A stretch of 64,000 bases of DNA, taken from the NCBI RefSeq assembly GCF_054482595.1, contig NZ_CM137008.1, one strand, 5' to 3'. The notes under the pieces were generated by a model that saw only the letters and a list, made by a program, of their open reading frames with translations, had not been told where the DNA came from and ran no database searches. A program made the translations under genes and the position numbers. Shown piece by piece: positions 10,352 to 63,055 of the stretch (position 1 is its first letter; each line of letters begins with the position of its first letter).

Positions 10352-10381
10352 AAAAAGCTGCGTCTCCCGGAGAAGACGCGG
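10352..10381 (-). terminator. Rho-independent terminator ending the cargo region
   Basis: Hairpin gcgtct(loop)agacgc followed on minus strand by T-run; downstream of secreted-protein gene. Confidence 0.5.
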
Positions 10382-10936: not shown

Positions 10937-10951
10937 GATAGACTCCTTAAA

Positions 10952-30220: not shown

Positions 30221-30222
30221 GA

Positions 30223-31188: not shown

Positions 31189-31244
31189 ACATCAATCCTT
31201 CTATTATAGTAAATGGAGTAACTGGTGTTACCCCATTATTATTA

Positions 31245-32003
31245 TTATCTTGCAATATGAGTCAGTATATTTACCCACAACGCGGTATAGAACGGCCAGG
31301 ACATAAACTGCTGTGTACCCCAGTGCGGTGAACAGTCACTCATAAAGCAGGCTATTTTCCCGTTGTGATAGTTACCAAAGACCAGTAATGGATCGTTGTT
31401 TATTGTTAATACCACCTCAGCATTTTCTTTAGCGATCGCCCGGTTATAACCTAGGAAAAAAGGATATTCAGAGAACCCTTTAATAACCGGATGGTCAGGT
31501 TGTGATGGCTGTGCAATAACCCCCTCTGGTTTTTCGACACGATCGTCACCATCTAACATCGTAACCGGGAGCACATCAGCCAGAACTGTATTTTTATAAT
31601 TGGCTTTTGCTTCAATTCCCATGAATGAGAGATAGCCGCCAATCATCAATAACCCACCACCGTTATTCACATATTCTTTAATCAGTTCGAGAGCGTTTGG
31701 TTTTATGCGAAGCTGATAAAAAGTATCATTTTGTAGCAGGAAAGTATTACTACCAATATCACTAATAACGATGGCATCATATTGTTCTAACTGTGCCACA
31801 TCTTCAGGGAAGGCAATTTGTACCGTATGTGCCGGCATATAGGTGACATCTACCTGACTATTTTTCAGACATTGGAGTAACCAGGTCGCACCTTCTTCAT
31901 ATTTACTTGAGGTAAAACTGTCATATCCTTTTGAATGAATCATATGAATATGCCAGGATTCTCCAATAAAGAGCACCTTTAGTGATTTTTTGGTGTTATT
32001 CAT
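31245..32003 (-). CDS. Hypothetical cytoplasmic protein, possibly glutamine amidotransferase-like fold
   Basis: 252 aa; family call is weak, by recalled similarity only. Confidence 0.45.
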   Translation of the reverse strand: MNNTKKSLKVLFIGESWHIHMIHSKGYDSFTSSKYEEGATWLLQCLKNSQVDVTYMPAHTVQIAFPEDVAQLEQYDAIVISDIGSNTFLLQNDTFYQLRIKPNALELIKEYVNNGGGLLMIGGYLSFMGIEAKANYKNTVLADVLPVTMLDGDDRVEKPEGVIAQPSQPDHPVIKGFSEYPFFLGYNRAIAKENAEVVLTINNDPLLVFGNYHNGKIACFMSDCSPHWGTQQFMSWPFYTALWVNILTHIAR

Positions 32004-32016
32004 TCTCTGTCCCTTC

Positions 32017-34774: not shown

Positions 34775-36175
34775 TTATTGTTCGAACTTCGGAGCAATCA
34801 GATTATCCAGATTGAATGTCTTCTCCCATTCTTCCTGTGTGAGTAGCTTACGTTCGACAACCACTATCTGATGGAGGGATTTGCCTGTATGGTATGCTTC
34901 GTGCGCCATTTCAGAACACACCTTATATCCCAGATGTGGCTTCAGGAGAGTCACAATACCGCAGGAATGCATTACCATCTCTGCAGTTCGATCGGAATTA
35001 GCTGTAATGCCATCAATGCATTTAGTTCGGAGTGTGTTACAGGCATTCGTCATCACCTTGAGTGAGGTGAACAGCGCAAAGGTGATGACCGGCTCCATAA
35101 CGTTAAGCTCAAGCTGACCAGCAGATGCCGCCAGCATCACTGTGGTGTCCAGCCCCTGAACCAGGAAGCAAGACTGGTTTGTTACTTCCGGGATAACGGG
35201 GTTAACCTTACCAGGCATAATGGAAGAACCCGGTTGCAATTGAGGCAGGTTAATTTCAGCCAGGCCGCAACGGGGGCCTGAAGCAAGCAGTCGAATGTCA
35301 TTACAAACCTTGGTAAGCTTCACAGAGAGGCTCTTCATGGCCGAACTGAGTGCAACATATGCACCACAGTCGCTTGTGGCAGCGATGAGATCTTCACTGT
35401 TCCTGAAATTAATGCCTGTGATCTGGGCCAGATATTTCACGGCTAAAGCGGGATAATCCGGGTGAGCGGTAACACAGGTACCAATCGCAGTAGCACCAAG
35501 GTTTACAACCCGCAGGTGTTCCTGTGCATTACGGATGACCCGAATTTCATCATTAATTGTAAAACCCCAGCCATGGAACTCCTGGCCGAGAGTCATTGGC
35601 ACTGCATCCTGCAGGTGAGTACGTCCCATCTTGAGCACTGTGCTGAACTCGTCAGCCTTTTTGTAGAATGCTCCTACGAGGTGTTCAACAGCTTCAAGCA
35701 ATACATTGCTTCGCAGCAGTAATGCCAGATGTAATGCTGTCGGATATGTATCATTGGTGGACTGACCAAAATTAGCATGGTCGTTTGGCGAAACGCGTTT
35801 GTAATCCCCTTTAACGCCACCAAGTTTTTCTGCAGCAAGATTGCAAATCACTTCGTTGCAGTTCATATTGGTTGACGTTCCGGCTCCCCCCTGAAGCCAG
35901 TCGGTCACAAACTGTTCCCGGTACTTACCATCAATTAATTGGTCGCAAGCCCAGATTAAAGCATCCGCAACATCAGCAGGAATTGTACCTAACTCCTTAT
36001 TAGCCATCGCAGCTGCTTTTTTCACATAACCGAAGGCAATGATGAAGAAAGGCTCCTGACTCATTGGCATTTCAGTGATATGGAAATTATCTTTTCCACG
36101 AAGTGTCTGAACACCATAATAGCAATCATCCGGAATTTCACGCTCACCAAGGAAATCGCTTTCAATACGAGACAT
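34775..36175 (-). CDS. Aspartate ammonia-lyase family protein (copy 1)
   Basis: 466 aa, fumarate-lyase signature GSSIMPGKVNP; about 99 percent identical to 55677..57077. Confidence 0.85.
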   Translation of the reverse strand: MSRIESDFLGEREIPDDCYYGVQTLRGKDNFHITEMPMSQEPFFIIAFGYVKKAAAMANKELGTIPADVADALIWACDQLIDGKYREQFVTDWLQGGAGTSTNMNCNEVICNLAAEKLGGVKGDYKRVSPNDHANFGQSTNDTYPTALHLALLLRSNVLLEAVEHLVGAFYKKADEFSTVLKMGRTHLQDAVPMTLGQEFHGWGFTINDEIRVIRNAQEHLRVVNLGATAIGTCVTAHPDYPALAVKYLAQITGINFRNSEDLIAATSDCGAYVALSSAMKSLSVKLTKVCNDIRLLASGPRCGLAEINLPQLQPGSSIMPGKVNPVIPEVTNQSCFLVQGLDTTVMLAASAGQLELNVMEPVITFALFTSLKVMTNACNTLRTKCIDGITANSDRTAEMVMHSCGIVTLLKPHLGYKVCSEMAHEAYHTGKSLHQIVVVERKLLTQEEWEKTFNLDNLIAPKFEQ

Positions 36176-36397
36176 AATATTCTAACTCCATTATTTGAAA
36201 ACAATGTGACAATAACAAATTGTTTAACCGGAGCTATGCTCTCGGAATTTGAATTCTTACATCATTGAAATAACATGTGATATCAATCTGTCAGAATTCT
36301 TCTGACAGTCAGTAACTGAATGCAGATTAACTGCCTGACTAATTATCAAATAGTAACTCTGTAACTACTTCCATAAAGAATGAAAATTATGATTCTA

Positions 36398-37696
36398 TCA
36401 GACCATCATTGGTGCAATCACAAACCCAAATGTCACTCCTGCAATAACACCACCCAACCCGGGTAGCATAAATGGGTGATTTAATAAATAATTGCCCACA
36501 CGGGTTGTGCCGGTAGTATCAAATTCCATCGCGGCGAGTGATGTTGGATACGTTGGAAGCACGAATACTCCCGTAACGGCAACATAAGATGCAAGAATTG
36601 CCCAGGTTGGTATGTTGAGTGCTACAGCCAGAGGAATAATTAACGGCGTAGTCGCTCCCTGTGAGTAAAGTAAAGCGCAGGTAAAAAAAAGAACTAATGC
36701 TAAAAGCATCGGATAAGTTTGTAAAATATCACCGGCGATATCTTTGATCTCAGTTAAATGCGCATCAATAAAGGTGGTACCTAAGGTTACAATACCAAGA
36801 ATCACTGCCAGCGAACTCATTCCAGCACGAAATGTGGAGGTCAGAATAATGTCATCAGTAGACATCTTACACAGTATTACCATCAGGCAGGCAGCAGAGA
36901 GCATGCAAATAATAATAATATCGCGCGTTTCCATCGGTTTGCTGATATCAAAACCCGGACGCAATTGGGGGAATGCAGCAAGAATAACAATGGCGATCGT
37001 CGCCAGCATGAATAATCCGACGGAAAGCGTTGCACCAGGTTTGATGCTGTTATTATTCTCGTATTTTTGCACCAGACCTTTTTGCAGACGTTCAAGATAT
37101 ACTTCGTCATCTTGTAATTCACACCCCTGTCGGGAGGCGATAAAAGCAGCAACCATCGCGGCGACAAAAGAGGTGGGAAGGCATACCGACATCACCTGAA
37201 TAAAACTGACGCCATTAACCTCCATAATAGTGAGCATAGCTGCCATTGCGGCACTGATTGGTGAGCCAGAAATTGCAACCTGTGAGGCGACAACTGAGCC
37301 AGCGAGTGTGCGGGAAGGCCGGATACCGGACTCTTTTGCTACTTCAGCAATTACCGGCAGTGTGGAGAAAACAATAAACCCGGTACCGGCCATAATGGTC
37401 ATTAACCAAGTGATAATCGGTGCGATTATGTTGATATATTTTGGGTTACGTCGCATGAAATTACTGGCTAAACGTACCAGATAATCCATCCCACCTGCCG
37501 CCTGTAAGGCTGAAGCTGCCACAACTACGGTCATAATAATCAGGATCACATCGACTGGCGGTGATCCCATAGGCAGACCAAATCCCAGAGTCAGGATCGC
37601 AAGGCCAAGACCGCCGCATAAACCAATGCCGATTCCTCCCTGACGAATACCAAAAAATATTGCGCCAAGTACAACGATAATTTCCAGCCAAACCAT
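36398..37696 (-). CDS. Anaerobic C4-dicarboxylate transporter, DcuA/DcuB family
   Basis: 432 aa polytopic membrane protein with DcuA-like sequence. Confidence 0.8.
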   Translation of the reverse strand: MVWLEIIVVLGAIFFGIRQGGIGIGLCGGLGLAILTLGFGLPMGSPPVDVILIIMTVVVAASALQAAGGMDYLVRLASNFMRRNPKYINIIAPIITWLMTIMAGTGFIVFSTLPVIAEVAKESGIRPSRTLAGSVVASQVAISGSPISAAMAAMLTIMEVNGVSFIQVMSVCLPTSFVAAMVAAFIASRQGCELQDDEVYLERLQKGLVQKYENNNSIKPGATLSVGLFMLATIAIVILAAFPQLRPGFDISKPMETRDIIIICMLSAACLMVILCKMSTDDIILTSTFRAGMSSLAVILGIVTLGTTFIDAHLTEIKDIAGDILQTYPMLLALVLFFTCALLYSQGATTPLIIPLAVALNIPTWAILASYVAVTGVFVLPTYPTSLAAMEFDTTGTTRVGNYLLNHPFMLPGLGGVIAGVTFGFVIAPMMV

Positions 37697-37754
37697 GATG
37701 TTCTCCGTTGTAAATATAATCTTTGTAAAATAACTTTCTGGCTGTGATTTAGAA

Positions 37755-38474
37755 TTATTGAGTTAAATGTTGATCTTTTCCGATACGATTTTCATACCAT
37801 TTTATTCCTGCGCGAACGAGTGAAGCGGTTGAATCAATATAGCGTAAAGGTTGATCTTTAACGGCTTGTGACAGAATAATGGGAATTTCCGTACAACCAA
37901 GAATCAAGATCTCTGCTCCGCGGGAAAATAAATTTTCAGCCTGCTCTTCCATCAATTTTTGCGCATGTGTAACATTTCCCGCTTTAAGTGAATAAATGCT
38001 TTTCATCACATTTTTTTGGCCATCTGCATCCGGGGTGATATAGTTAAACCCTAACGATTCAATTCCTTTCTGGTATAATCCCATATACAGCGTGGCATCA
38101 GTGGCCAGGAGGCCAATTCTAGTTTTACCACAGACGCGAACTTCATCGACCGTAGTATCTATGATACTTAGTATATCAATATGGCAAGCATCTTTTAGTT
38201 CTTTAAACCAATAGTGTGCGGTATTACAGGGAATAACAATACATTCTGCTCCTGCATCTTCCAGTTTATGCATATAGTCACGCATAACGGGTAAAGGCGA
38301 GAGCCCGTTATGCATTAATGCATCGGTACGGTCAGGAATATCCGGGATAGAAGAAATAATTAAAGGTATATGTTCTTGATCTCGTTGTGCTGCTGTAAAG
38401 GTGACAAATTTATTAAATAAGTCGACAGTGGCGGCCGGCCCCATTCCACCGAGCACACCGATTAAACCTTTCAC
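37755..38474 (-). CDS. Aspartate/glutamate racemase family protein
   Basis: 239 aa; two catalytic Cys motifs (IPCNTAH, LGCTE). Confidence 0.8.
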   Translation of the reverse strand: MKGLIGVLGGMGPAATVDLFNKFVTFTAAQRDQEHIPLIISSIPDIPDRTDALMHNGLSPLPVMRDYMHKLEDAGAECIVIPCNTAHYWFKELKDACHIDILSIIDTTVDEVRVCGKTRIGLLATDATLYMGLYQKGIESLGFNYITPDADGQKNVMKSIYSLKAGNVTHAQKLMEEQAENLFSRGAEILILGCTEIPIILSQAVKDQPLRYIDSTASLVRAGIKWYENRIGKDQHLTQ

Positions 38475-38813
38475 AATACTTACCTCTCAGAAAATCAATG
38501 CTCATAAACTTAAAAAACCATTTCTCCTTTTTTAACAGTCTCTAAAGGCTATGAGAAATGCAATGATGTACAATGCAATGCAAGACTTGCATGATGTAGT
38601 TTTGCAATATACATGAACCATATACTATTGTTGCATGAAGACCTATCATAATGATGAAAATAAACGCTTTTGGGAGAAGTGTTAAACTGGTTTAGATACA
38701 GAAAACGAATGGATTATGCATAAAACGAATAACTTAAATATGCTATCTGCATTCATTACCCCGGTTTTCGGGGGGTATACTAACTAAAATTTGATAATAC
38801 TTGGATAATAGAA

Positions 38814-39713
38814 ATGAAAAATATAGAGACCAAATGGTTATATGATTTCCTGACACTGGAAGCCTGTCGCAATTTCTGTCAGGCAGCAAAAGATCGTAAC
38901 CTTTCACAACCAGCATTCAGCAGACGAATAAAAGCGTTAGAGTCAGCTATAGGTGTTGTTTTGTTCGATCGTACAACCTCTCCTTTACAATTAACTGAAG
39001 AGGGTAGGCTTTTTCACTCCCAGACACGCAGTTTAGTGCAACAGCTTGAATGCAATCTGAATGAGTTAGGGGGGGATAATTCATTCAATTTGCCTAATAT
39101 TAAGATTGCAGCTGCGCACTCATTATCCCTCAGCATGCTACCTAAACTTCTGCACTCACTCACCACCTTAGGCGGAGACTTTATCTATCATGTTGAGGCT
39201 ATTGATGTCGTCCAGGCCGTAAATACGTTACGAGAAGGGAAGAGTGACTTTATTATTTCATTTCGAGATGAGGAGTTTATGCAATCGCCATTTTGTTGTA
39301 TAAAACTGTTTGAATCTGAGTTGTATCCGGTATGTGCTGCTGATCAACAGGGAAAACCGATTTTCGATCTTACCAATTCACAGGCTCCTTTGCTCGACTA
39401 TACTCCAACTTCTTATATGGGCAGACTGGTTAATCGTCATTTGGCAGAACAGGGAGGGATAGCCGGACACACAATATTGGTATCTTCAATGAGTGAACTA
39501 CTAAAAAATATGGCACTCAATGGACTTGGTATTGCCTGGCTCCCTCTCTGGTCAATCGCGGATGAACTGAACACAAAACGACTTGTGTGTCCGTGGCCTG
39601 CTAAATGGGCAGTGCCTATTCAGGCTTATATTTATCGTATGGATACTCGGCTGAACAAAACGGCTGAACACTTTTGGACGATTTTACGAAATAACATTAA
39701 AGAGAATAGCTAG
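38814..39713 (+). CDS. LysR-family transcriptional regulator
   Basis: 299 aa; N-terminal HTH (QPAFSRRIKALE); divergent from racemase operon. Confidence 0.85.
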   Translation: MKNIETKWLYDFLTLEACRNFCQAAKDRNLSQPAFSRRIKALESAIGVVLFDRTTSPLQLTEEGRLFHSQTRSLVQQLECNLNELGGDNSFNLPNIKIAAAHSLSLSMLPKLLHSLTTLGGDFIYHVEAIDVVQAVNTLREGKSDFIISFRDEEFMQSPFCCIKLFESELYPVCAADQQGKPIFDLTNSQAPLLDYTPTSYMGRLVNRHLAEQGGIAGHTILVSSMSELLKNMALNGLGIAWLPLWSIADELNTKRLVCPWPAKWAVPIQAYIYRMDTRLNKTAEHFWTILRNNIKENS

Positions 39714-49549: not shown

Positions 49550-50581
49550 CTATTGTTCATAAATTGATACGATAGCTTTACCATCGTTGCCGATAGTTCC
49601 ACGATACATCCCTTCTGTATTGAAACTCATAGTATAATTACCATTCTTATCTAGAACAATGACACCACCACTACCATTAATGTTTTTAACTTCATCAAGC
49701 GCATTTTGAGCTGCTTCTTTCAATGGTGTATTTTTATATTTCACCTGAGCAGCAATATTGTATGCAGTTGAAGTTCTAATAAACATTTCTCCAGTACCTG
49801 TAGCAGAAACAGCAACGGTATTATTATCGGCATAGGTTCCTGCTCCAATTATTGGCGAGTCACCTACGCGTCCGTAACGTTTATTTGTCATACCTCCTGT
49901 TGATGTTCCAGCTGCCAGATTACCATCTTTGTCCAACGCGACTGCTCCAACAGTTCCATATTTATAGTCGTAGTTCTTTGGGGGGAGTAAAAGAGATGCT
50001 GATTTACCATTATGATCAAGGGTTATTTTTTCGTCTTTTAAAGCGTTCTGTAGCTGTTGCCAACGGAAATCAGTTTTGAAATATGCTGGCTCAACCATAA
50101 CTAAGCCTTGCTCTTTTGCAAATAGTTCCGCACCATTAGAGATCATTAATACATGAGGGCTTTTAGTCATAACTGCATAAGCAGCGTTTATAGGGTTTTT
50201 TATGGTCGTCACTCCTGCAACGGCTCCGGCCATTTTGGTTTTTCCATCCATAATTGCAGCATCAAGTTCGTTTTTGCCATCATGAGTAAAGACAGCGCCT
50301 TTTCCAGCATTGAAGAGGGGAGAGTCCTCCATAACATTAATTGCACGCTGAACAGCATCAAGGCTACTTCCTCCACTATTAAGCACAGCATACCCAGCAT
50401 TTAGTGCATCTGTTAACTTTTCTCTGTATTGTTTTTCTTGTTCAGGTGTAATAGTATCTTTTGTTATGGTGCCAGCTCCACCATGAATTACAAGGCGTAT
50501 TGGCGTTTGAGATTCAGCGTGAGCATATCCTATACACAATGCGAAGGCTGCCATTACTGTTATACCTTTTATTTTATTCAT
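49550..50581 (-). CDS. Periplasmic isoaspartyl peptidase / L-asparaginase (Ntn-hydrolase family)
   Basis: Signal peptide MNKIKGITVMAAFALCIGYAHA; Ntn-hydrolase motifs (GTVGAVALD); track ORF has 10 extra N-terminal codons. Confidence 0.8.
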   Translation of the reverse strand: MNKIKGITVMAAFALCIGYAHAESQTPIRLVIHGGAGTITKDTITPEQEKQYREKLTDALNAGYAVLNSGGSSLDAVQRAINVMEDSPLFNAGKGAVFTHDGKNELDAAIMDGKTKMAGAVAGVTTIKNPINAAYAVMTKSPHVLMISNGAELFAKEQGLVMVEPAYFKTDFRWQQLQNALKDEKITLDHNGKSASLLLPPKNYDYKYGTVGAVALDKDGNLAAGTSTGGMTNKRYGRVGDSPIIGAGTYADNNTVAVSATGTGEMFIRTSTAYNIAAQVKYKNTPLKEAAQNALDEVKNINGSGGVIVLDKNGNYTMSFNTEGMYRGTIGNDGKAIVSIYEQ

Positions 50582-50699
50582 AACTCCTCCTTTTGTCTGA
50601 AGTTTATACAATATAAATATTTAAACTTTTTCCATTATGTTTATTTGACTTCTATCAAAAAAAATTATGCTAATTCGATTTTGCAAAATTTAATTGCAC

Positions 50700-52005
50700 G
50701 CAAATAATATGCACATATTTTTTAGTGTAATGAGTGACTTTTATGGATAGGTTCCCGCTGACCTCTATCACCATACTTCCCCCCGCTTTCAGTAGGACAT
50801 CCGTGTCTGACTTTATATCGAGATTTCATGTGGAAGAGATAAATGCCGGACCTTGAGAAAGAAATATAACTCCCCAGTCTCGTTGAACCCTCTTGTTGAT
50901 CCACTTTTCAAGTACGTAACGATCCAAGTTCCGCCTGCCGTCCAAGGCGTTTGGTGAAGCAGCACGGTCCGTCACTGTCAGCCCACAACTTCCGCTCCCA
51001 CGGGCGCGCCACCGCGCTCTTCTTCTCATTCACCTTCTGTTTCAGTTTGCTCTCCACGAACGCCCTGATGTCCTTCAGCAGATGGTCGCCCGCTTTCCGG
51101 CTGCTTACGTAGATGTTGCAGTCGTCTGCGTAGCGGCAGAAGCTGTGTCCACGATGGCGCTTAACTGCTGCGCTATCGCCTGCTGGATAAGCCTGTCCAC
51201 CACCGTCGGGATGCCTAAGGTTCTCACGCCGCCATCCGGCTTCGGGATATCCATCCGGCGTATTGCCCGCGGCTGGTAGTTTCCGTCAATCAATACCTGC
51301 CATACGCTGCGCCAGTTCTTCTTCAGCCACGGTTTCAACTCCGCCACACCTTTGTTTTCCACCACGCGCTGATAAGCCAGCATCAGGTTTTCTCTCGTTA
51401 TCACCGCTTCCATCGTCAGCGGCACTTCCGCTTTCGTTTGCCCACCCGCCGCCGTGCTGATTTCAGCGCCATCATGCAGCCCTGACGGATACTGTCCGTC
51501 TCCTCTGCCGCTGGCCGCAGTTGCCTGCGCGTGTGCTTCATTAATCATCATCGGGTTCGGATGTCCTAATCACAGTTAATCATGTTCGGCCCTTCATGCT
51601 GCCGGTTTTGCAGCACTACTACGGCGTCGGCTGACTTCTGCCGCCCCATCCCGGCGCCTCACGGCACCGGTAGCACACTGGCAGGGCGACAGATCTCCCG
51701 GGGTAATTCACGCGACTTTCCTGCTTATGCCTGTCGGCTTTACGTCACAGCGTTCCGTGTGAGTATCGGGCTTTGGTGATTTGTGCCACCTTACCCTGCT
51801 GCGCCGCCTTAACCGCTTCCTGTTCGTCAGGCCAGCATTTTGCATCCGGCTTCCTTCAGATTTCACCTCGCGATGAACACCCTTGCCTTCCGCTAACACT
51901 TCCCCTCACCGGGTGTGTGGAGGACTTTCACCTCTTAGTCGTTCTTCAGCCACCACAGTTGAAGAACAGCGCCAGTCACGGCGCTACGCGCCATGCCCGG
52001 CGCAC
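50700..52005 (-). mobile_element. Group II intron fragment (5' domains plus truncated intron-encoded protein)
   Basis: Minus-strand GTGCGCC 5' consensus at about 52005; RT-like ORF 51105..51551; 3' part missing. Confidence 0.5.
51105..51551 (-). pseudogene. Group II intron reverse transcriptase/maturase, N-terminal fragment
   Basis: ...TRENLMLAYQRVVENKGVA...RRMDIPKPDGGVRTLGIPTVVDRLIQQA typical RT domains 0-2; truncated. Confidence 0.65.
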
Positions 52006-52196
52006 ATATGCAACGAGCGCCGATGTAAACGGCACCCGTAATATTTTAGCTGCAGGGCACGCCGTACTTGCCTGTAAAGAGATGGTGCAGTCAGGCCTTT
52101 TGTTTAAGCAGGAGCCCACCGAAATGATTCCGGCAATAGCCTGATTAGCAGGAATCCACATCCTTCTGGGCGTGGAGGATGACAATCTAAAACAAG

Positions 52197-53558
52197 TTAA
52201 TAAAAAATACCGATAATCGCAGAGTGAAAAACAAAACCAACTATCAGGGGTAAAGCAGTGCGTTTTACCACTTCGAAGGGAGTTATATTTGCTCCACTGG
52301 AAACCGCTATAACCACGCCAGATACGGGAGACATCGCACGCCCCATATGGGAAGCCTGCTGCATAGGCAGGATCATCGATATGGCATTCACGCCCATGCT
52401 GGCAGCGATTTGTGGTATCAGTTCAACAAAAGCCAGAAATGGCGCATTGCCCGATCCCATAATGACAGCTGCAGCCAGTGTAACCAGAGCAAAAACGATG
52501 CCCATCGCAAAAGGGGGTAACCCAACGTGCTCTGCCATCAAAATTAATTGATCTATCGCGCCAATGCTTTTAATCCCATGAGCAAACACACCTGCGGCCA
52601 CCAGTAAGCCCACCACGCCGGTAAATGCTGTCCCCATTCCTTTCAGGAAATGGGTAAACCCGTCACATACAGCTTTCAGATCACATTTACGGACCCATTC
52701 GATCAGCATGCAAATTGCCATTGAGATAAGAACAATCGTAATGATATTGAGATTAATTCCGGTGACAAAAATCTCCGATGAGCCAACGGCCATCAGGATC
52801 GGTAGCATAGGTAGCAGAGCATAATAAGCCGGCGTACTGCCTGCTTTTATGACCGTTGTCGTACCAATTTCATGAGGTAATGTTCCAGCTTTACGATCAC
52901 AGTGTTTCTGCCAGAAAAAGTGGCTGATACCGACAATCAGAACAGTCGCCAGAGCAGCAGGCCCCTGATGATAGACAACATACTCCACCACATCCATATT
53001 TACCGCTTCAGAGCCTCGTATGGCGTCAATGGCTGTCGGTGTGTACGCCACACCAAGAGAGGTGGCAATTACCCCTGCGGCAGACGCTGCTGACAGCCCG
53101 AGTCCGAGCATAATAGGAAACATGGTTCCCATCAGTAAAACAGCAAGTCCGGTAGCTGAGGGGATAGCCAGTTGAAGAAGACTGGCGAAAAGATAAGAGA
53201 AAAAAAGCAGAACATAGGGGGAACGTAATGTCCGTAATGGCCGGGTTACCACACGGACAACCGCTTCATTCGCACCGATATGGTCCATGTAATGCGCAAA
53301 TCCCATCAGGGTCATAATCATCAGACCGAGATCAGCCGCACGGGTACTGAATAAATTGCGCATGACTTCGAAAGGATCAAGAAAACTAATTCCTGTACCG
53401 GACACGCCCTTCGGTAACACTGTGCCCCAACCGGTAAACCAGGTACAAACCATCAGCGCAAGCCCGGCAATAAAAAGCACGGGTTCTGCACGATATCCTT
53501 TCAGGATTAAGCGAGCAACTATCACGATAACAAGAAGCGCGATAACAACTTTAATCAT
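52197..53558 (-). CDS. DcuC-family anaerobic C4-dicarboxylate transporter
   Basis: 453 aa polytopic membrane protein; DcuC-like C-terminal motif [25 protein letters not shown]. Confidence 0.8.
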
Positions 53559-54811
53559 GACTCACGATTCCCTGTGGTGAACCCATTGAATGTCTCCTGA
53601 ATGATGGCAATAACCACATCACTTGCCGCCCGAAGTGAACGGACTGGAAGATATTCATAGATAGAATGGAAATTATGTGCGCCGGTAAAAATGTTCGGGC
53701 AGGGTAATCCTTTTTGTGAAAGAACAGCGCCATCATATCCTCCACGCATCGCCACCGGTGTCGGAGTAATACCACATCGTTGGTAAGCTCGCAGTGCAAT
53801 GTCGATGGGATAATGCCCCTCTCCCTGCAGACTGTTAAAGACATTGGCGTACCGATCGCTCAGTTGGCAGATCACGCTTCCTTCTCCCCATAATGCACAA
53901 GCACTTTCTGCAAGCTGGCGTACAAATGTCTTCCGGGCGTGATATCCTTCCTCGCTGAAATCTCGTATATCCAGTTTTAGTACAGTTCTGGCACTGTTTC
54001 CCTGTAACTGTTTCACCCAATAATAGCCTTCGCGTCCTTCTGTATATTCAGGCGCTTCTCCTCCTGGCAACATCGAAATGAATTTGTGAGCCATCAAAAG
54101 AGAGTTCTTAAGCTTGCCTTTCGCTGACATAGGGTGTGCAGACTGGCCGGTAAAGATAATTTCTGCATCACCCGCATTCCAGTTTTCGTAAACAAATTCT
54201 CCAATACCGCAGCAATCCAGAGTGTAGCCAAAATCTGCGCCAAACTCTGAAACATCGAAGGCTTTGGCCCCCCGTAACCCCTGCTCTTCATCTGGCACAA
54301 ACCCAACTTTAACTTCTCCATGCCTGATTTCAGGATGAGAAATCAGAAATTGAAGTGCGTTCATTATGGCCGCCAGCGCCGCTTTATCATCGGCCCCCAG
54401 AAGGCTGGTACCATCTGTCACTATAAGATCATCGCCAATATAATTTTTGAGCTCCGGGAATTCACTCTCACGCAAATAAATATTCAGTTCAGGGTTCAGA
54501 CAGAGATCGCCCCCATTATAAGGTAATCGTTGCGCTTTTGTATCGGCTGTCTGTTCGGCACTGGTGTCCAGATGTCCAAAAAAGGAAACGACGGGGATTG
54601 TTTCGTCAGTATTTGCAGGGAGTGTTGCTGTTACGATAGCATTCTCTCTGAGAATAATATCCTCCATACCCAATGCTTCAAGTTCACTCACCAACAATTT
54701 CGCAAGTTTCATCTGACCAGGAGATGAAGGCATGATCCCTTTTGCGCCGTTTTCTCGTGAGGTAGTGGTATTAATTTTTGTATAATTGATAAAGCGTTCG
54801 ACAATATCCAT
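53555..54811 (-). CDS. Peptidase T-like tripeptidase (M20 family)
   Basis: 418 aa; M20 motifs (HLDT, GADDKAA, DEE); 4-nt overlap with dcuC start. Confidence 0.8.
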   Translation of the reverse strand: MDIVERFINYTKINTTTSRENGAKGIMPSSPGQMKLAKLLVSELEALGMEDIILRENAIVTATLPANTDETIPVVSFFGHLDTSAEQTADTKAQRLPYNGGDLCLNPELNIYLRESEFPELKNYIGDDLIVTDGTSLLGADDKAALAAIMNALQFLISHPEIRHGEVKVGFVPDEEQGLRGAKAFDVSEFGADFGYTLDCCGIGEFVYENWNAGDAEIIFTGQSAHPMSAKGKLKNSLLMAHKFISMLPGGEAPEYTEGREGYYWVKQLQGNSARTVLKLDIRDFSEEGYHARKTFVRQLAESACALWGEGSVICQLSDRYANVFNSLQGEGHYPIDIALRAYQRCGITPTPVAMRGGYDGAVLSQKGLPCPNIFTGAHNFHSIYEYLPVRSLRAASDVVIAIIQETFNGFTTGNRES

Positions 54812-55676
54812 TGAGATGCCTTCTTCAACATTTTCCAGATTTTAGGGACAGTTTATTAACACCTTCTGACTCTGAAGAACGTGAATTTATGCTATGTTCA
54901 GGCTGTCATTTTTCCAAGAGAGAAATGATAATTATGAAGAGCCTTTGCATGATTGAACATAAAATACAGACTCCATTACAGTATGGCGTTTTTTTAGCTT
55001 GTGATGATTAATGCCGTTACACCCTGAAAGACGATTTAGTGATCAAATCATCTAAAAATAATTAATCATAATGGATGTTAAAATCCATGATCTAACTCAA
55101 ATTACAAACCATTAAAGCGGAAGATGGAGTGGAAACATTACGTTTTCTACTCTATTCCAAGATTTATCAATTAGAAGTGCAATAACATTCCCGTGTAAAA
55201 ACTCTTATCTTAATAAGAATCACCATGAGTGACTATATCTACAACGCTGGAAAACCTAGCAGAGATATAGGTTTTCTATGGTGGTAAACAGGTTGTTTTT
55301 CTGAAGGATGTGACCAAACCGGGATGCTATTATAAAATAGTTCTACTTAATCATGATTTAAAAAATCAGCATTAATAATAAGTTTGATTGCGGAATTGTT
55401 TTTTTTGATCTTAATCATATTAGTGCAGCGTTATCTGCATATTTCGGGCTTTTACTGGTTATATTTGATTGCTAAATAACCCACTAATTTTAACGTTATA
55501 AAAATGTGCTTGATATCACGTTTTAAGTTTATCTTATTAGTTTAAATATATTCCATTAGATGGTAATGGTTATGTCATCTGGTGATTATAAGTATTCATT
55601 CTTAATGTTGGATAAGTGTTTTATGAAAACAATTTGTTATTGTCACATTGTTTTCGAAAAATGGAGTTAGAAAATT

Positions 55677-57077
55677 ATGTCTCGTATTGAAAGCGATTTC
55701 CTTGGTGAGCGTGAAGTTCCGGATGATTGCTATTATGGTGTTCAGACACTTCGTGGTGAGGATAATTTCCATATTACTGAAATGCCAATGAGTCAGGAGC
55801 CCTTCTTCATCATTGCCTTCGGTTATGTGAAAAAAGCAGCTGCGATGGCTAATAAGGAGTTAGGTACAATTCCTGCTGATGTTGCGGATGCTTTAATCTG
55901 GGCTTGCGACCAATTAATTGATGGTAAGTACCGGGAACAGTTTGTGACCGACTGGCTTCAGGGGGGAGCCGGAACGTCAACCAATATGAACTGCAATGAA
56001 GTGATTTGTAATCTTGCTGCAGAAAAACTTGGTAGCGTTAAAGGGGATTACAAACGCGTTTCGCCAAACGACCATGCTAATTTTGGTCAGTCCACCAATG
56101 ATACATATCCGACAGCATTACATCTGGCATTGCTGCTGCGAAGCAATGTATTGCTTGAAGCTGTTGAACACCTCGTAGGAGCATTCTACAAAAAGGCTGA
56201 CGAGTTCAGCACAGTGCTCAAGATGGGACGTACTCACCTGCAGGATGCAGTGCCAATGACTCTCGGCCAGGAGTTCCATGGCTGGGGTTTTACAATTAAT
56301 GATGAAATTCGGGTCATCCGTAATGCACAGGAACACCTGCGGGTTGTAAACCTTGGTGCTACTGCGATTGGTACCTGTGTTACCGCTCACCCGGATTATC
56401 CCGCTTTAGCCGTGAAATATCTGGCCCAGATCACAGGCATTAATTTCAGGAACAGTGAAGATCTCATCGCTGCCACAAGCGACTGTGGTGCATATGTTGC
56501 ACTCAGTTCGGCCATGAAGAGCCTCTCTGTGAAGCTTACCAAGGTTTGTAATGACATTCGACTGCTTGCTTCAGGCCCCCGTTGCGGCCTGGCTGAAATT
56601 AACCTGCCTCAATTGCAACCGGGTTCTTCCATTATGCCTGGTAAGGTTAACCCCGTTATCCCGGAAGTAACAAACCAGTCTTGCTTTCTGGTTCAGGGGC
56701 TGGACACCACAGTGATGCTGGCGGCATCTGCTGGTCAGCTTGAGCTTAACGTTATGGAGCCGGTCATCACCTTTGCGCTGTTCACCTCACTCAAGGTGAT
56801 GACGAATGCCTGTAACACACTCCGAACTAAATGCATTGATGGCATTACAGCTAATTCCGATCGAACTGCAGAGATGGTAATGCATTCCTGCGGTATTGTG
56901 ACTCTCCTGAAGCCACATCTGGGATATAAGGTGTGTTCTGAAATGGCGCACGAAGCATACCATACAGGCAAATCCCTCCATCAGATAGTGGTTGTCGAAC
57001 GTAAGCTACTCACACAGGAAGAATGGGAGAAGACATTCAATCTGGATAATCTGATTGCTCCGAAGTTCGAACAATAA
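55677..57077 (+). CDS. Aspartate ammonia-lyase family protein (copy 2)
   Basis: 466 aa, differs from copy 1 at 3 residues; GSSIMPGKVNP signature. Confidence 0.85.
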   Translation: MSRIESDFLGEREVPDDCYYGVQTLRGEDNFHITEMPMSQEPFFIIAFGYVKKAAAMANKELGTIPADVADALIWACDQLIDGKYREQFVTDWLQGGAGTSTNMNCNEVICNLAAEKLGSVKGDYKRVSPNDHANFGQSTNDTYPTALHLALLLRSNVLLEAVEHLVGAFYKKADEFSTVLKMGRTHLQDAVPMTLGQEFHGWGFTINDEIRVIRNAQEHLRVVNLGATAIGTCVTAHPDYPALAVKYLAQITGINFRNSEDLIAATSDCGAYVALSSAMKSLSVKLTKVCNDIRLLASGPRCGLAEINLPQLQPGSSIMPGKVNPVIPEVTNQSCFLVQGLDTTVMLAASAGQLELNVMEPVITFALFTSLKVMTNACNTLRTKCIDGITANSDRTAEMVMHSCGIVTLLKPHLGYKVCSEMAHEAYHTGKSLHQIVVVERKLLTQEEWEKTFNLDNLIAPKFEQ

Positions 57078-57232
57078 TTGTTCAGAATCTGTAAGAAGGG
57101 AGATCCGGCAGGGGATGGCGCGAATGAAAACGTATCAGTCCTCTGCCCGGATGTTTGTAAAAATACATTCCATAAGGCCTTTGTTGAGAGGAGCTCAGGG
57201 GTAAAGGTGTCTCACTAATTCGGGAGAGAATC

Positions 57233-58567
57233 ATGGATATTATCACTGTTCTTCAGATAGTGGTTCTGCTGGGGGCAATCTTTTTGGGTGTCCGTATGGG
57301 CGGGATTGGTATTGGTTATGCCGGTGGCATTGGGGTATTGATTCTGGGGCTTTGTCTGGATATGAAGCCTGGTAATATCCCCTGGGATGTGATTCTAATT
57401 ATTGCATCGGTAATTTCTGCTATTTCGGCCATGCAACTGGCGGGAGGACTGGACTATCTCGTTCAGGTCGCTGAACGAATTCTTCGTAAAAATCCAAAAT
57501 ATATTAATTACCTGGCTCCGGTTGTCACTTATGTGCTGACAATCTTTGCCGGTACGGGACATACTGCATTTTCAATGATCCCTGTAATTGTCGAAGTTTC
57601 CAAAGAACAAAACATTAAGCCCTCATGTCCGCTCTCAATTGCGGTTGTATCATCTCAAATTGCAATTACAGCATCACCTGTATCGGCTGCCGTTATCTAT
57701 ATGTCTGGCGTACTGGAAGGCTTTGGGTGGAGTTATCCAGTATTGCTTGGGATATGGTTGTTTACCACATTCGTTGGTTGCATGCTTACCGCATTTATAA
57801 TCAGTCTGATTTCTGACATGAAATTAGACAATGATCCGGTTTACCGGGAGCGTCTTTCCAAAGGACTCGTAAGCGCGCCAGTAAAGAGTGTTAACAAACA
57901 GCTCAAGCCTTATGCCAGACGATCTGTCGCAATTTTCCTTATTGGCGTCATCCTGGTGGTCCTTTACGCTTCGGCCATTAGCCCGACGCTGGGTCTGATT
58001 GATAACGTTGTTGTTAGTCGTGATGCGGCTATTATGAGTCTCATGCTACTGGTTGGCGGATTCATTACCCTTTTCTGTAAAGCAGATATAAACAAGATTG
58101 CGGACTCCTCTGTGTTCAAGTCAGGCATGGTTGCCTGTATCTGTGTACTGGGTGTGGCATGGTTGGGGGACACTTTTGTATCTGGTCATTCAGGAGAAAT
58201 TAAGGAGCTTGCCAGAACTACTGTATCCCAGTATCCAGCTCTTCTGGCTGTGGTATTTTTCCTGGCTGCGATGCTTCTGTATTCACAGGCTGCAACTGCC
58301 AAAGCTATCACTCCGGCTATTGTGACTGCATTGGGTATTACTGCAGCGAATCCGGATGACAGTTACATGCTGGTAGCTTCTTTTGCTGCTGTGTCTGCTT
58401 TATTTGTGTTACCAACTTACCCAACCCTTCTGGGGGCGGTGCAAATGGATGACACAGGAACGACCCGTATTGGTAAGTATGTGTTCAACCATGCTTTCTT
58501 TATTCCGGGTGTACTGGCTATTGCTTTCTCAGTGCTTCTGGGATTTCTTGTGGTGAGTATGTTCTGA
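57233..58567 (+). CDS. Anaerobic C4-dicarboxylate transporter, DcuA/DcuB family (divergent from 36398..37696)
   Basis: 444 aa polytopic membrane protein, DcuA-like. Confidence 0.8.
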   Translation: MDIITVLQIVVLLGAIFLGVRMGGIGIGYAGGIGVLILGLCLDMKPGNIPWDVILIIASVISAISAMQLAGGLDYLVQVAERILRKNPKYINYLAPVVTYVLTIFAGTGHTAFSMIPVIVEVSKEQNIKPSCPLSIAVVSSQIAITASPVSAAVIYMSGVLEGFGWSYPVLLGIWLFTTFVGCMLTAFIISLISDMKLDNDPVYRERLSKGLVSAPVKSVNKQLKPYARRSVAIFLIGVILVVLYASAISPTLGLIDNVVVSRDAAIMSLMLLVGGFITLFCKADINKIADSSVFKSGMVACICVLGVAWLGDTFVSGHSGEIKELARTTVSQYPALLAVVFFLAAMLLYSQAATAKAITPAIVTALGITAANPDDSYMLVASFAAVSALFVLPTYPTLLGAVQMDDTGTTRIGKYVFNHAFFIPGVLAIAFSVLLGFLVVSMF

Positions 58568-59054
58568 TTCTTGACCGAACGTAATTTCAATCTCCTGGCT
58601 ACCCGTCAATACGTATCCACATTGATTGGTAGCCCATTCAATCTTTAAGTATTGAGGTGCGCATTGTTACTTCGTTATAAATATTTTAGTGCAACATTTA
58701 TTATACGATTCTAATCAAAAAACATGATGGACGCTCATTGCTATTCTGAATGGGAGGTAATTAAACATTCTATTTACATTGATGTTTTCTACATCGATAA
58801 GAATATTTTTGATGAATGATGTTATCACGGAATGCGGTGTTTTTTTATCGATAGTTAATGTTGTTCGCCCACCTGTCAAGGAGGGATATTATATCCTGAA
58901 ATATAACAGTTTATCATCTTATTCTGGATGAGTTAATGACAAGTTAAAGAGAATGAATTTATTAAAACATATCATTATTAAGCAAATTTATAAGGCATTA
59001 ACTGTTCTATAGAAAAATACATGGTAAATATATTTCACAGTCCAGGAGGTAGAT

Positions 59055-60101
59055 ATGAATTTCTATAAAAGAACGGCACTTGCCGCACTGGTTATGGGTT
59101 TTAGTGGTGCAGCACTGGCATTACCCAATATCACCATTTTAGCAACCGGCGGGACCATTGCCGGTGGTGGTGACTCCGCAACCAAATCTAACTACACAGC
59201 GGGTAAAGTTGGCGTAGAAAATCTGGTTAATGCGGTGCCGCAACTGAAGGACATTGCGAACGTTAAAGGCGAGCAGGTAGTGAATATCGGCTCCCAGGAC
59301 ATGAACGATAATGTCTGGCTGACACTGGCGAAAAAAATTAACACCGACTGCGATAAAACCGACGGCTTCGTCATTACCCACGGTACCGACACGATGGAAG
59401 AAACCGCTTACTTCCTTGACCTGACGGTGAAATGTGACAAACCGGTGGTGATGGTCGGTGCAATGCGCCCGTCCACGTCCATGAGCGCAGACGGTCCCTT
59501 CAATCTGTATAACGCGGTAGTTACCGCAGCTGATAAAGCCTCCGCTAATCGTGGCGTACTGGTAGTAATGAACGACACTGTTCTGGATGGCCGTGACGTC
59601 ACTAAAACCAACACCACCAACGTAGCGACCTTCAAGTCTGTTAACTACGGCCCTCTGGGTTACATTCACAACGGTAAGATTGACTACCAGCGCACCCCGG
59701 CACGTAAGCACACCAGTGATACGCCGTTCGATGTCTCTAAGCTGAATGAACTGCCGAAAGTCGGCATTGTTTATAACTACGCTAACGCATCCGATCTTCC
59801 GGCTAAAGCACTGGTAGATGCGGGCTATGATGGCATCGTTAGCGCTGGTGTGGGTAACGGTAACCTGTATAAATCCGTGTTTGACACCCTGGCGACCGCC
59901 GCGAAAAACGGCACTGCGGTAGTGCGTTCTTCCCGCGTACCGACGGGAGCAACCACTCAGGATGCCGAAGTGGATGATGCGAAATATGGCTTCGTCGCCT
60001 CTGGCACGTTGAACCCGCAAAAAGCACGTGTTCTGCTGCAACTGGCTCTGACGCAAACCAAAGATCCGCAGCAGATCCAGCAGATATTCAATCAGTACTA
60101 A
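59055..60101 (+). CDS. ansB: Periplasmic L-asparaginase II
   Basis: 348 aa; signal peptide; TGGTIAG motif; recognised AnsB sequence. Confidence 0.95.
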   Translation: MNFYKRTALAALVMGFSGAALALPNITILATGGTIAGGGDSATKSNYTAGKVGVENLVNAVPQLKDIANVKGEQVVNIGSQDMNDNVWLTLAKKINTDCDKTDGFVITHGTDTMEETAYFLDLTVKCDKPVVMVGAMRPSTSMSADGPFNLYNAVVTAADKASANRGVLVVMNDTVLDGRDVTKTNTTNVATFKSVNYGPLGYIHNGKIDYQRTPARKHTSDTPFDVSKLNELPKVGIVYNYANASDLPAKALVDAGYDGIVSAGVGNGNLYKSVFDTLATAAKNGTAVVRSSRVPTGATTQDAEVDDAKYGFVASGTLNPQKARVLLQLALTQTKDPQQIQQIFNQY

Positions 60102-60108
60102 TAACCTC

Positions 60109-60129
60109 GCCCCGGTAACGTGCCGGGGC
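60109..60129 (+). terminator. Rho-independent terminator of ansB
   Basis: Hairpin gccccgg(taacgtg)ccggggc followed by TTTTAT. Confidence 0.6.
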
Positions 60130-60694
60130 TTTTATAGTATTGGTTTTAGGCAGTTTAATGAATAAAGTGACAGACATGAATAATGGGGACCATTTCAATA
60201 CATAATGGTTTTCTTGTACCCATGAAATGTGGTTAATTCCGGATTTATCGGGAGGGGCTTGTTAATGATATCCTGATGCTCATCGTGATGATGAGTAACA
60301 TTCATAAAATGTGCTTATCAAAAACCGTGGAGTATTACTTGGCAGATAGATGAGCGAATTCACAGTTGAATCCAGAGAAATAATATCCTCTGTTCACTGG
60401 TAGACCAATGTTGTTCCAGGACAAATTCATTCACGATAAAATTGCGGAAAAAACGGGCAGGATTGGTAACGAAGCATCCGGGAGAATATACTCTTTCTGA
60501 ACAATGGGGGAGTGCCATGCATCAGTGTAAATGTCAAAAAATCTGAAATCTTCCATATTTACCGCACATAACTATTCCCTGACCATACGTTTATCCTCTT
60601 AATATCCGGAACACACTCTCCAGAAATTATCGCACGATGAGTTTATTGTGATTAAGTAGATGTCATAATTATGGTAGATAAATGATTAAAAGGC

Positions 60695-61420
60695 TTACGG
60701 TTTTTCACTATATTTTTTAATATATGGGTAATATTGATGTCTTATCCAGTAACGATAAGCAGGGCGACCAGTGACACCACAGGAAAAATCAAATGCCAAT
60801 ATATGGCAACTTACCAGCCAGATGATATATTTTCTGCATGAGATTCTGGATATCTTAATACCACTGGCCAGTTCATTGAGTGTGAATTTTTTATGTTGAT
60901 GCTCATCAATCCACCTACAAATAATTCGCAATGTATCTGTTGACAGTCCTTTGGGTAAATGTCTTATTTTTTCTGTGTTCGGAATTATTTTGTGAGTTAA
61001 TAAATCCAGTTCTGATTGATTGAATATCTTCTGACTCTCAAGAAGAGTCTTTTTATGTTTCCATCGTGTAAGCGAATCAACCAAACGTGAGATATGAAAT
61101 GGCTTTATCAGATAATCAGAAACACCATAATGTAATGAATCTTTAATTGTCGCAGAGTCATCAGCAGCAGAAATTACAATAACATCACTTTTGCAATGAA
61201 TGCTATGAAGAAAAGGGAGTAAATCAAGTCCGTTATCTTTATTGATATAAAGATCAAGCAAAATCAAGTCAGCCAGTTTTTTATTTACAGATATAATTTC
61301 TTTCGCCTGACCAAGTGATAACGCTATGCCACAGCATTTAAATGCCGGGGTTTGTTCTACAATGCGACGAATCACATCAGCTACTAATATATCGTCATCA
61401 ACAATTAATACATTGTTCAT
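60695..61420 (-). CDS. Response regulator, CitB/DcuR-like (REC + HTH), orphan
   Basis: 241 aa; N-terminal MNNVLIVDDD receiver domain; no histidine kinase ORF adjacent. Confidence 0.75.
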   Translation of the reverse strand: MNNVLIVDDDILVADVIRRIVEQTPAFKCCGIALSLGQAKEIISVNKKLADLILLDLYINKDNGLDLLPFLHSIHCKSDVIVISAADDSATIKDSLHYGVSDYLIKPFHISRLVDSLTRWKHKKTLLESQKIFNQSELDLLTHKIIPNTEKIRHLPKGLSTDTLRIICRWIDEHQHKKFTLNELASGIKISRISCRKYIIWLVSCHILAFDFSCGVTGRPAYRYWIRHQYYPYIKKYSEKP

Positions 61421-62398
61421 TTTTCCAACCTAGCTTGCCAACGTAATACCTAAATCTATATAAATATTCTATATAGTGATTTAAAAATCAACCCTATTGT
61501 TACTTATGGAATTTAATTAACTTTCCCTGGGTTAGATATACTATTTAATATTTCCCCGTTAAAATAAAATGTGAAATTATTTTTGTTAAAAATTTTAAGA
61601 GGGAAATGGATTAGTTTTTTTTATCATTGGTTCTGTGTCATTAACTTTGGAGTTAGTAACTCTACTTCTAAGAACGTTTTTTGAAAAAACATTGCTTATA
61701 CTAAACATTATAGTAAAAAGAGTGACACCTGATCAACCTACAACAGTGATTACACCAGAGTGTATATCTCTGTATATTTTCTGTGACGAGTACAAAATAT
61801 CAAGTTAACCCACTCAGATCGTACAGCAGAACCTTGTAATTTCCACGCAACTCACTGATTGGAGATACATCTAATTTTTATTTCCATGGCTGAGATTACT
61901 AAGAACGTGTTCTGTTGTATTGTTATCCGTTTTTGTCAAACCATTATCACAGTTCATTCGGATATCTCTGATACTGATCTCCTCAGACCTGCATAATTAC
62001 AACTTCTGTTGGTTCCGCGTCACCAGGTAATCAACACCCAACTGTTGGTTCTGTCCTTGGACGGGAACACATGTTGGCAGGTAACTCCCATCCAGTGAAG
62101 ATAAATTTCTCAAAAGGCAACTACTCAGGCAAGTTCTCCTTTATGTTTATGCCTGATAATATTTTCCAGATCGTATAAGGCGTCGATACGTACAGAAGAC
62201 GTGGCACTCAGACTTACGCATCCCTGCTCTAACTTAACATAGTCTGCTATGATAGCGCTCTCTTTACCAATAAAGCTCGCTTATATATCAAAGATACCTT
62301 ATTAGGATAAACACAGCTAATAACTTGACAGTGATATCACATAGCACTCACACCAGATAAGTTTTCCGGTTGAGTTTTAGTTTTTGAAAGATTTAATG

Positions 62399-63055
62399 CT
62401 ATATTTTCTTTTCCAGTAAATGAACTCGCATTAACTCTGAAGCCATTTGGGCATCGCCTTTTTTGATATACGACAATATCTCTCTCTGTTTTGAAGCAGT
62501 ATCAAGGAAGTATTGACAATCATTATCCGGTAACGACTCTCTTGTTTTCTCAAAATAAGCGATTAACACATCAGAGAAAACCTGCAGAACACGATTACCA
62601 CTGGCCTGAAGCAAGAGCAGGTGAAAATCCCGATCATGTTGATCTGCTATTTGTGGATTGTCTGCATTTTCCTCAATCAATCTCAATTCATTTTCAAGTT
62701 TGGAGAGCATCGCTGGGAAAATTCGGCGTGTTGCCAGTGGAATGATCGCGCACTCAACTAAAATTCTGGCCTCTGTAAATTCCGAGATATCAAACCCAGA
62801 TAGATCAAACTGCATCAACAATTGGTCGTTAATACTACTCTGGCCAACGTTTTTTAACAGACTTCCTCTGCGAGGGGCTCGTTCAAGCATTCCCATTTGG
62901 ACGAGAGTACTAAGTGCCTGACGGACTTTATATCGGGAGGTGTTAAAACGAGTTGCAAGTTCCGTTTCTGTTTCTATACGGCCATCGGCTTTACGATTAG
63001 CTTCATCAAGCAAATAATCTTTAATAGATTCAAATAGTTCTTTTCTTTTATCCAT
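62399..63055 (-). CDS. GntR-family (FadR/FCD subfamily) transcriptional regulator
   Basis: 218 aa; N-terminal GntR HTH ([19 protein letters not shown]). Confidence 0.8.

Follow-up and report, generated by a model that had tools for sequence, protein, structure and literature searches.

L-aspartate and asparagine are important to gut Escherichia coli both as precursors of anaerobic electron acceptors and as sources of nitrogen. Intestinal nitrogen assimilation is the subject of PMC10936423. The core C4-dicarboxylate sensor DcuS and its response regulator DcuR are encoded at a locus where dcuS overlaps dcuR by 4 bp, and 5415 of 5426 complete E. coli genomes (99.8%) have dcuSR. Here we describe a stretch of 64,000 nucleotides from E. 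coli (NCBI RefSeq assembly GCF_054482595.1, contig NZ_CM137008.1; hereafter the window, numbered from its first letter), in which genes for the use of asparagine, aspartate and small peptides at 49550-61420 are accompanied by a second dcuR-like gene, which we call dcuR2. The region is a horizontally mobile, mosaic accessory island and not the native or conserved neighbourhood of ansB; at the level of the mobile unit, dcuR2 is a genuine orphan. On a balance that leans modestly in its favour, we explain the locus as a mosaic mobile island for asparagine, aspartate and peptides carrying an intact, kinase-less DcuR paralogue that would use a phosphodonor of its host, most likely DcuS.

DcuR2 resembles the regulator of the DcuS-DcuR system in its receiver and its DpiA-like winged helix, in passing the DcuR equivalog model, and in the conservation of its phospho-acceptor residues and recognition helix. 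It differs in being an accessory second copy beside the core dcuR with no dcuS upstream, in the remodelling of its alpha1 and alpha5 docking helices, in its restriction to E. coli, and in a GC content at third codon positions (GC3) of 0.27 against 0.60 for core dcuR. The locus lacks the organisation of a dcuSR operon and, as an extra copy in approximately 4% of genomes while almost all have the core pair, dcuR2 is not the single DcuR orthologue of its genome. The closest metabolic counterpart is the route encoded by core ansB and the aspA-dcuA operon; the island specifies the same three activities with the same aspA-then-dcuA order, and AnsB2 is nearly identical to core AnsB. In contrast, AspA2 and DcuA2 share no more than 54-55% identity with their core counterparts and have their closest relatives in a gut bacterium of approximately 55% GC; the island also joins ansB physically to aspA-dcuA with a foreign promoter region, and adds PepT2-DcuC2, an IaaA-like enzyme that is exported, and a regulator of its own.

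A third comparison is offered by an orphan regulator of Citrobacter amalonaticus (P0054), which is likewise kinase-less, derived from DcuR (60% identity), situated in an accessory region rich in insertion sequences (IS) and divergent in alpha1. However, it is just 46% identical to DcuR2, has other alpha1 substitutions, and lies upstream of a ydhYVWXUT-like oxidoreductase operon rather than aspartate and asparagine genes. The orphan response regulators FimZ and RssB are core genes and belong to other regulator families than DcuR2, and KguS/KguR of uropathogenic E. coli is an island-borne dicarboxylate two-component system that has its own kinase. The locus described here therefore belongs to known kinds, being an accessory metabolic island with an orphan response regulator. 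RefSeq already annotates the island genes, naming the regulator simply DcuR; in the literature searched we found no publication on this island or on an orphan DcuR.

A mobile island and its kinase-less regulator

Fifteen kilobases from window position 49000 match several complete E. coli genomes at 99.9-100% identity, and the window is E. coli chromosome. At least 80% of this 15-kb query is present in approximately 199 of the 5426 complete genomes, and the region of the regulator in 222. The island also occurs, at 98.2% identity and with the same 978-bp gap upstream of dcuR2, on five conjugative plasmids, of which the two that were examined are of IncFIB/IncI type. The chromosomal site, in SMS-3-5 and other strains, is an IS-rich region by cobU and tRNA-Asn genes. 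The region qualifies as a genomic island by being patchily distributed, of unusual and uneven composition, associated with tRNA genes and IS elements, and present on plasmids. A first-pass annotation of this DNA, made from its letters and open reading frames (ORFs), had described the genes as clustered around ansB and proposed that its reading would fall if this were the common ansB neighbourhood with a kinase encoded nearby. Neither holds; ansB is indeed there, as a second copy and not as the core gene, which is found in every genome, so that island strains have two.

DcuR2 belongs to the DcuR / CitB-DpiA family of response regulators. It scores 312.9 bits on the NCBIfam DcuR equivalog NF007750, against a cut-off of 262, with the model matching residues 1-238; the receiver is recognised by Pfam Response_reg (E = 2e-17), and Pfam HTH_64 alone is weak (E = 0.036). 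The AlphaFold model (mean predicted local distance difference test score of 86) contains a standard receiver, in which alpha1 spans residues 11-23 and alpha5 residues 110-129, followed at 161-238 by a winged helix, where the predicted helix-turn-helix and beta-hairpin correspond to the DpiA-like fold. In an alignment of 23 CitB-family members, DcuR2 keeps every invariant position, including D9, D56 and K106, and its D8-D10, D56, S84 and K106 all align with invariant or nearly invariant residues. The recognition helix, SR(V/I)SCRKY(L/I)IWL, is nearly unchanged relative to DcuR.

Within a collection of 5.8 billion proteins, near-identical dcuR2 sequences form one cluster only, under E. coli names. 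The nearest relative beyond that cluster is core E. coli DcuR, at 57% identity, and no relative lies between 57% and approximately 90%. The DcuR proteins of E. coli and Citrobacter freundii are 89% identical, and so the 57% between DcuR2 and DcuR represents a long branch. Identity of DcuR2 to the DcuR of other Enterobacterales declines in the same order as that of E. coli DcuR itself, which points to an ancestor of the Escherichia/Citrobacter dcuR type and to rapid divergence since then. These pairwise gradients were used instead of a neighbour-joining tree, which placed both orphans (DcuR2 and that of C. amalonaticus) on long basal branches, probably through long-branch attraction.

A second dcuR2 allele, found in 21 genomes, differs at 29 coding positions, of which 16 are synonymous and 13 non-synonymous; synonymous divergence (dS) is 0.11 and the ratio of non-synonymous to synonymous divergence (dN/dS) is 0.21. 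Since neither the two alleles nor the plasmid versions have an interrupted ORF, and given this ratio, we conclude that dcuR2 is maintained by selection. Among more than 1000 contigs and approximately 220 complete genomes the great majority have the ORF at full length, and truncated variants are few. With selection acting on the gene and no kinase found in the window, the island loci examined or a complete island-bearing plasmid, dcuR2 in this respect fits the description of a functional orphan.

The first-pass annotation had reported no cognate kinase ORF and about 950 bp of AT-rich non-coding DNA beyond the regulator; the stretch is there, with 35% GC, and its length is 978 bp (61421-62398). 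It contains no ORF longer than 57 amino acids, and its best promoter-like match is at 61736-61707 on the minus strand. Core DcuS as a tblastn query returned nothing better than E = 0.19 from the 64-kb window, and nothing notable from the gap; DcuS and DpiB together returned nothing at E <= 0.1 from the window or from five island loci. The same queries found nothing at E <= 1 on the complete 135.7-kb conjugative plasmid pECY44-2, which has no annotated histidine kinase. Translated on its three minus-strand frames, the gap gave no kinase domain in Pfam; NCBIfam, which should contain models of complete DcuS and DpiB, detected no kinase in all six frames of the gap or in the three minus-strand frames of the spacer between ansB2 and the regulator (60102-60694). 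Rfam at E <= 1 matched nothing in the region except group II intron domains, and left the gap without a match. A distant-mode blastn search with the gap, covering all plasmids and E. coli genomes, recovered only the island itself. When DcuS homologues were sought in E. coli, all the matches listed were orthologs of at least 84% identity, which saturated the search. The absence of a kinase gene stands for the window, the four chromosomal island loci examined, the 31-kb island region of one plasmid and the complete pECY44-2.

Nor does the gap belong to the neighbouring GntR module, since the homology of that module to Citrobacter begins exactly at the GntR stop codon. A transposon-like cassette around dcuR2 was considered and rejected, there being no meaningful flanking repeats. 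Island variants that still possess a kinase were also sought and none was found; the allele of the 21 genomes ends at ISKpn26, and the plasmid versions keep the same gap. With no kinase remnant found, we take dcuR2 to be a working orphan and not the scar of a recent deletion. An ancient loss could nonetheless have occurred, because dcuR2 descends from dcuR, which normally resides in a dcuS-dcuR operon; any kinase once attached has left no surviving trace. Of the two possibilities that the first-pass annotation had left side by side, deletion of the kinase thus finds no positive support in the DcuS/DpiB, Pfam or NCBIfam searches, and the true orphan is favoured by an intact gene with its phospho-acceptor residues under purifying selection.

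Divergence between the two alleles is unevenly distributed. The 21 genomes (including NZ_CP130667.1) differ by approximately 5% over 59250-61535, from the 3' half of ansB2 through dcuR2, and are nearly identical over the remaining island; in these genomes ISKpn26 is inserted approximately 115 bp upstream of dcuR2 and the right part of the island is missing. Those 115 bp are approximately 16% divergent, more than dS. The receiver-coding half of dcuR2 diverges by 5.7%, its 3' half and the first 250 bp or so downstream (60445-61000) by approximately 0.6-1.6%, and the sequence further downstream by 8.6%. Small ORFs downstream of dcuR2 (e.g. MEDFRFFDIYTDAWHSPIVQKEYILPDASLPILPVFSAILS) are preserved between alleles, match no family and lie in the low-divergence block, which may be a recombination block.

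Candidate phosphodonors and competing explanations

DcuR2 probably still acts as a transcription factor that depends on phosphorylation and draws on a phosphodonor of its host; the leading candidate is the core sensor DcuS, which is available in 99.8% of E. coli genomes. Response regulators generally present alpha1 and the beta5-alpha5 region as their kinase-docking surface. Five alpha1 positions, generally regarded as determinants of specificity and mapped from Spo0F, read L,V,V,R,I in DcuR2, M,V,L,R,Y in DcuR and P,L,M,E,Y in DpiA; judged from the alignment, the substitutions in DcuR2 are conservative. We rank cross-phosphorylation by DcuS above activation independent of DcuS, this above an unlinked accessory kinase, and all of them above loss of function, which is contradicted by selection.

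Several observations weigh against this interpretation. At positions that are invariant in 13 DcuR orthologs, DcuR2 is changed at five of seven in alpha1 (A11I, M12L, L16V, N17I, Y20I) and three of six in alpha5, against three of 41 in the rest of the receiver (Fisher exact p = 0.0025 for alpha1 versus the rest, and 1.5e-4 for alpha1 and alpha5 combined), a pattern which could indicate that the DcuS interface has been lost or retargeted. The C. amalonaticus orphan is also changed at five of seven alpha1 positions (p = 0.004), to other residues than those of DcuR2. The recurrence of the pattern with different substitutions looks more like relaxation than shared retargeting, and localised divergence of alpha1 in both orphans implies that the constraint of docking to DcuS was relaxed or redirected in each. 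Furthermore, 15 of 43 ortholog-invariant positions differ in the DNA-binding domain of DcuR2, and its targets may therefore be other than those of DcuR; no motif for DcuR2 binding was identified, a search of the text of the DcuS-DcuR paper having found no binding-site consensus with which to scan. Finally, the FNR- and CRP-like sites of the island are consensus matches in AT-rich DNA.

The main alternative is that DcuR2 is functional and insulated from DcuS, being activated by acetyl phosphate (abundant during anaerobic or mixed-acid growth), by another host kinase or independently of phosphorylation, and acting as an island-specific regulator with DNA targets of its own. The concentration of ortholog-invariant changes in the docking helices and the same pattern in C. 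amalonaticus both point this way, as does the strand after the recognition helix, which reads FTSIHYG in DcuR and AFDFSCG in DcuR2. In addition, the island works as a unit on conjugative plasmids that carry no kinase. However, the acidic pocket, D56, the conserved Ser/Thr position and K106 are all retained, which argues for dependence on phosphorylation; moreover, the alpha1 substitutions are mostly conservative hydrophobic exchanges and the recognition helix is almost unchanged. On balance we think insulation unlikely, while regarding it as the most serious competitor of the DcuS-dependent scheme.

Far less probable is a dedicated kinase encoded elsewhere in the accessory genome of island strains. 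The 64-kb window, the 42-kb SMS-3-5 region and the complete pECY44-2 hold no DcuS- or CitA-like sequence, the island spreads on plasmids without one, and a kinase-regulator pair travelling together would be expected to leave regulator relatives in the interval between 57% and approximately 90% identity that is empty among the 5.8 billion proteins. Similarly improbable, and last in our ranking, is the view that dcuR2 is a decaying, functionless relic with the gap as the remains of its kinase. The very low GC3, the long branch and the existence of truncated variants would suit such a relic, but the prevalence of the full-length ORF, the low dN/dS at a dS of 0.11, the retention of all catalytic residues and the lack of any protein-family signal in any frame of the gap all contradict it. 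We accordingly retain the DcuS-dependent, kinase-less paralogue as the preferred explanation.

Gene content and mosaic ancestry

Gene identities were obtained from a mechanical list of ORFs combined with NCBIfam, Pfam and Rfam searches, which bear out the genes named by the first-pass annotation, the group II intron fragment and the DcuR/CitB-type regulator; the genes do form a catabolic cluster for asparagine, aspartate and peptides. The features are as follows.

49550-50611, minus strand: ORF of an iaaA-like isoaspartyl peptidase/L-asparaginase (Ntn hydrolase), with an ATG at 50581 (NCBIfam NF007589).
50612-52196, minus strand: mobile-element debris of 55-58% GC (from Rfam, RefSeq annotation of identical DNA, and composition), comprising the next three features.
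51105-51551, minus strand: reverse transcriptase/maturase stub of 148 amino acids.
51589-51877, minus strand: group II intron RNA domains D1-D4 (Rfam RF02001, 140 bits, E 1e-29; RF01998, 72 bits, 1e-11).
52007-52144, plus strand: TnpB fragment (RefSeq annotation).
52197-53558, minus strand: dcuC2, anaerobic C4-dicarboxylate carrier of the DcuC family, 44% amino acid identity to core DcuC.
53555-54811, minus strand: pepT2, peptidase T (tripeptidase), 38% amino acid identity to core PepT.
54812-55676: divergent control region between pepT2 and aspA2, 865 bp, AT-rich (31% GC).
55677-57077, plus strand: aspA2, aspartate ammonia-lyase paralogue, 54% amino acid identity to core AspA.
57233-58567, plus strand: dcuA2, L-aspartate/C4-dicarboxylate carrier of DcuA type, 55% amino acid identity to core DcuA.
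59055-60101, plus strand: ansB2, second copy of periplasmic L-asparaginase II.
60695-61420, minus strand: dcuR2, DcuR-family response regulator of 241 amino acids, convergent with ansB2.
61421-62398: non-coding spacer upstream of dcuR2, 978 bp, 35% GC.
62399-63055, minus strand: GntR/FadR-family regulator, first gene of the GntR module.

The genes dcuC2 and pepT2 probably form one operon, since their ORFs overlap by 4 bp, and a terminator-like hairpin follows ansB2 at 60109-60129. AnsB, DcuA and AspA homologues are encoded together with hidden Markov model scores above the subfamily or equivalog cut-offs, which predicts the complete route. The iaaA-like protein scores 346 bits on the NCBIfam beta-aspartyl-peptidase model NF007589, below its equivalog cut-off, and contains the nucleophile motif GTVGAVALD. 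Read by eye from the ATG at 50581, its N-terminus, MNKIKGITVMAAFALCIGYAHA before ESQ, resembles a Sec signal peptide; the core E. coli IaaA is cytoplasmic. The start chosen by RefSeq lies at 50554 (M20, MAAFALC...), nine codons past 50581, and loses the charged beginning of the apparent signal peptide. One plasmid record starts the coding sequence at MNKIKG (50581), giving a complete signal peptide that ends in AHA before ESQ.

The components of the island are of diverse ancestry, and GC3 ranges from 0.26 (iaaA-like) and 0.27 (dcuR2) up to 0.57 (ansB2). Similarity between ansB2 and core ansB (95-96% DNA identity) is confined to 59060-60133, a segment that starts at the third codon and extends 32 bp beyond the stop, and the promoter region of ansB2 is therefore foreign. 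The aspartase gene had been noted as a second copy, and this is correct: 55627-57077 is a 99.0% DNA duplicate of 34775-36225 in the same window. An adjacent aspA-dcuA pair on a gut-metagenome contig of 55.6% GC has genes of the same lengths as those of the island and encodes an AspA 86.7% and a DcuA 83% identical at the amino acid level; metagenome proteins related to DcuA2 share 82-89% amino acid identity with it, and there too dcuA follows aspA. No DcuSR-type system lies beside these metagenome relatives, and a donor lineage with a linked two-component system was rejected for that reason. At the DNA level the GntR module, which comprises GntR, a pair of Dcu-family carriers and an ArgH-like lyase, shares 80% identity with a chromosomal locus of Citrobacter that lies between copA and cueR; the homology sets in at the final base of the stop codon of GntR (window 62399). 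The module is native to Citrobacter; in this window an IS3 element from approximately 63218 interrupts it directly after the GntR gene.

Other accessory genes lie nearby. The second aspartase copy (34775-36175, minus strand) belongs to an accessory cluster at 34775-39713 that also contains a DcuA/B-family carrier (36398-37696, minus strand; 49% identical to DcuA), an Asp/Glu racemase-like gene (37755-38474, minus strand) and a divergent LysR regulator (38814-39713, plus strand); this cluster may be a D/L-aspartate utilisation unit. Further upstream, 29186-33231 encodes a phosphotriesterase-like protein, a membrane protein, a 252-aa protein and a DeoR-ribokinase fusion. On the conjugative IncFIB/IncI plasmids, as seen at 6705-11110 and 16566-37444 of pECY44-2 (CP069703.1), the island is accompanied by its left-hand neighbours (an MFS transporter, a LacI regulator, a nucleoside hydrolase and MgtC) and is situated near a phosphite/phosphonate oxidation cluster (phnCDE-ptxD).

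Proposed physiology and significance

From the roles of the gene families concerned, we infer that the island would equip some E. coli with an additional, differently regulated means of using asparagine, aspartate and small peptides under anaerobic conditions. Acting on asparagine and beta-aspartyl peptides, AnsB2 in the periplasm and the IaaA-like protein, once exported, would liberate L-aspartate together with ammonium; tripeptides would be cut by PepT2. DcuA2 would import the aspartate in exchange for C4-dicarboxylates; DcuA is described in the abstract of PMC10634366 as an L-aspartate/succinate antiporter. AspA2 would then convert aspartate to fumarate and ammonium, the fumarate feeding core fumarate reductase and respiration and the ammonium providing nitrogen, while DcuC2 would export succinate. 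Signalling from DcuS to DcuR2 would place island promoters, and possibly the core DcuR regulon, under the control of aspartate and fumarate. Matches to the FNR consensus with one mismatch occur at 55405-55418 upstream of aspA2 (TTGATCTTAATCAT) and at 50645-50658 upstream of the iaaA-like gene; the former sits in a block conserved between chromosomal and plasmid alleles that are otherwise approximately 8% divergent there. These candidate sites would fit anaerobic control.

Kinase-less members of the DcuR family may be commoner than has been assumed. The C. amalonaticus orphan, which also appears on metagenome contigs, precedes a ydhYVWXUT-like operon of the aldehyde-ferredoxin-oxidoreductase type and is itself flanked by IS110, IS3 and IS21 fragments. 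On Tolumonas-type contigs, DcuR-like regulators (244 aa; 49% identity to DcuR2) have an ABC transporter on one side and a gene pair for ApbE and a flavin reductase on the other, with no adjacent kinase. A broader and rather doubtful generalisation is that kinase-less DcuR paralogues are recurrent adaptors on mobile islands of Enterobacteriaceae, their docking helix remodelled so that they either tap the host DcuS or are insulated from it, with E. coli and C. amalonaticus as two independent instances. If true, anaerobic catabolic genes could become responsive to signals in any host that acquires them, without an imported membrane sensor.

This locus stands out for a DcuR copy whose docking helix is remodelled and which plasmids carry along with no sensor; it is a modest regulatory puzzle and not a new kind of system. 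Because its changes concentrate at the docking helix, dcuR2 provides a compact natural case of regulator evolution after the loss of a kinase, and it prompts one to ask whether regulators gained by horizontal transfer connect to sensors of the core genome. Conjugative plasmids spread the island among isolates from poultry, humans and the environment and, in duplicating the aspartate and asparagine route under separate control, it could be a fitness factor in colonisation.

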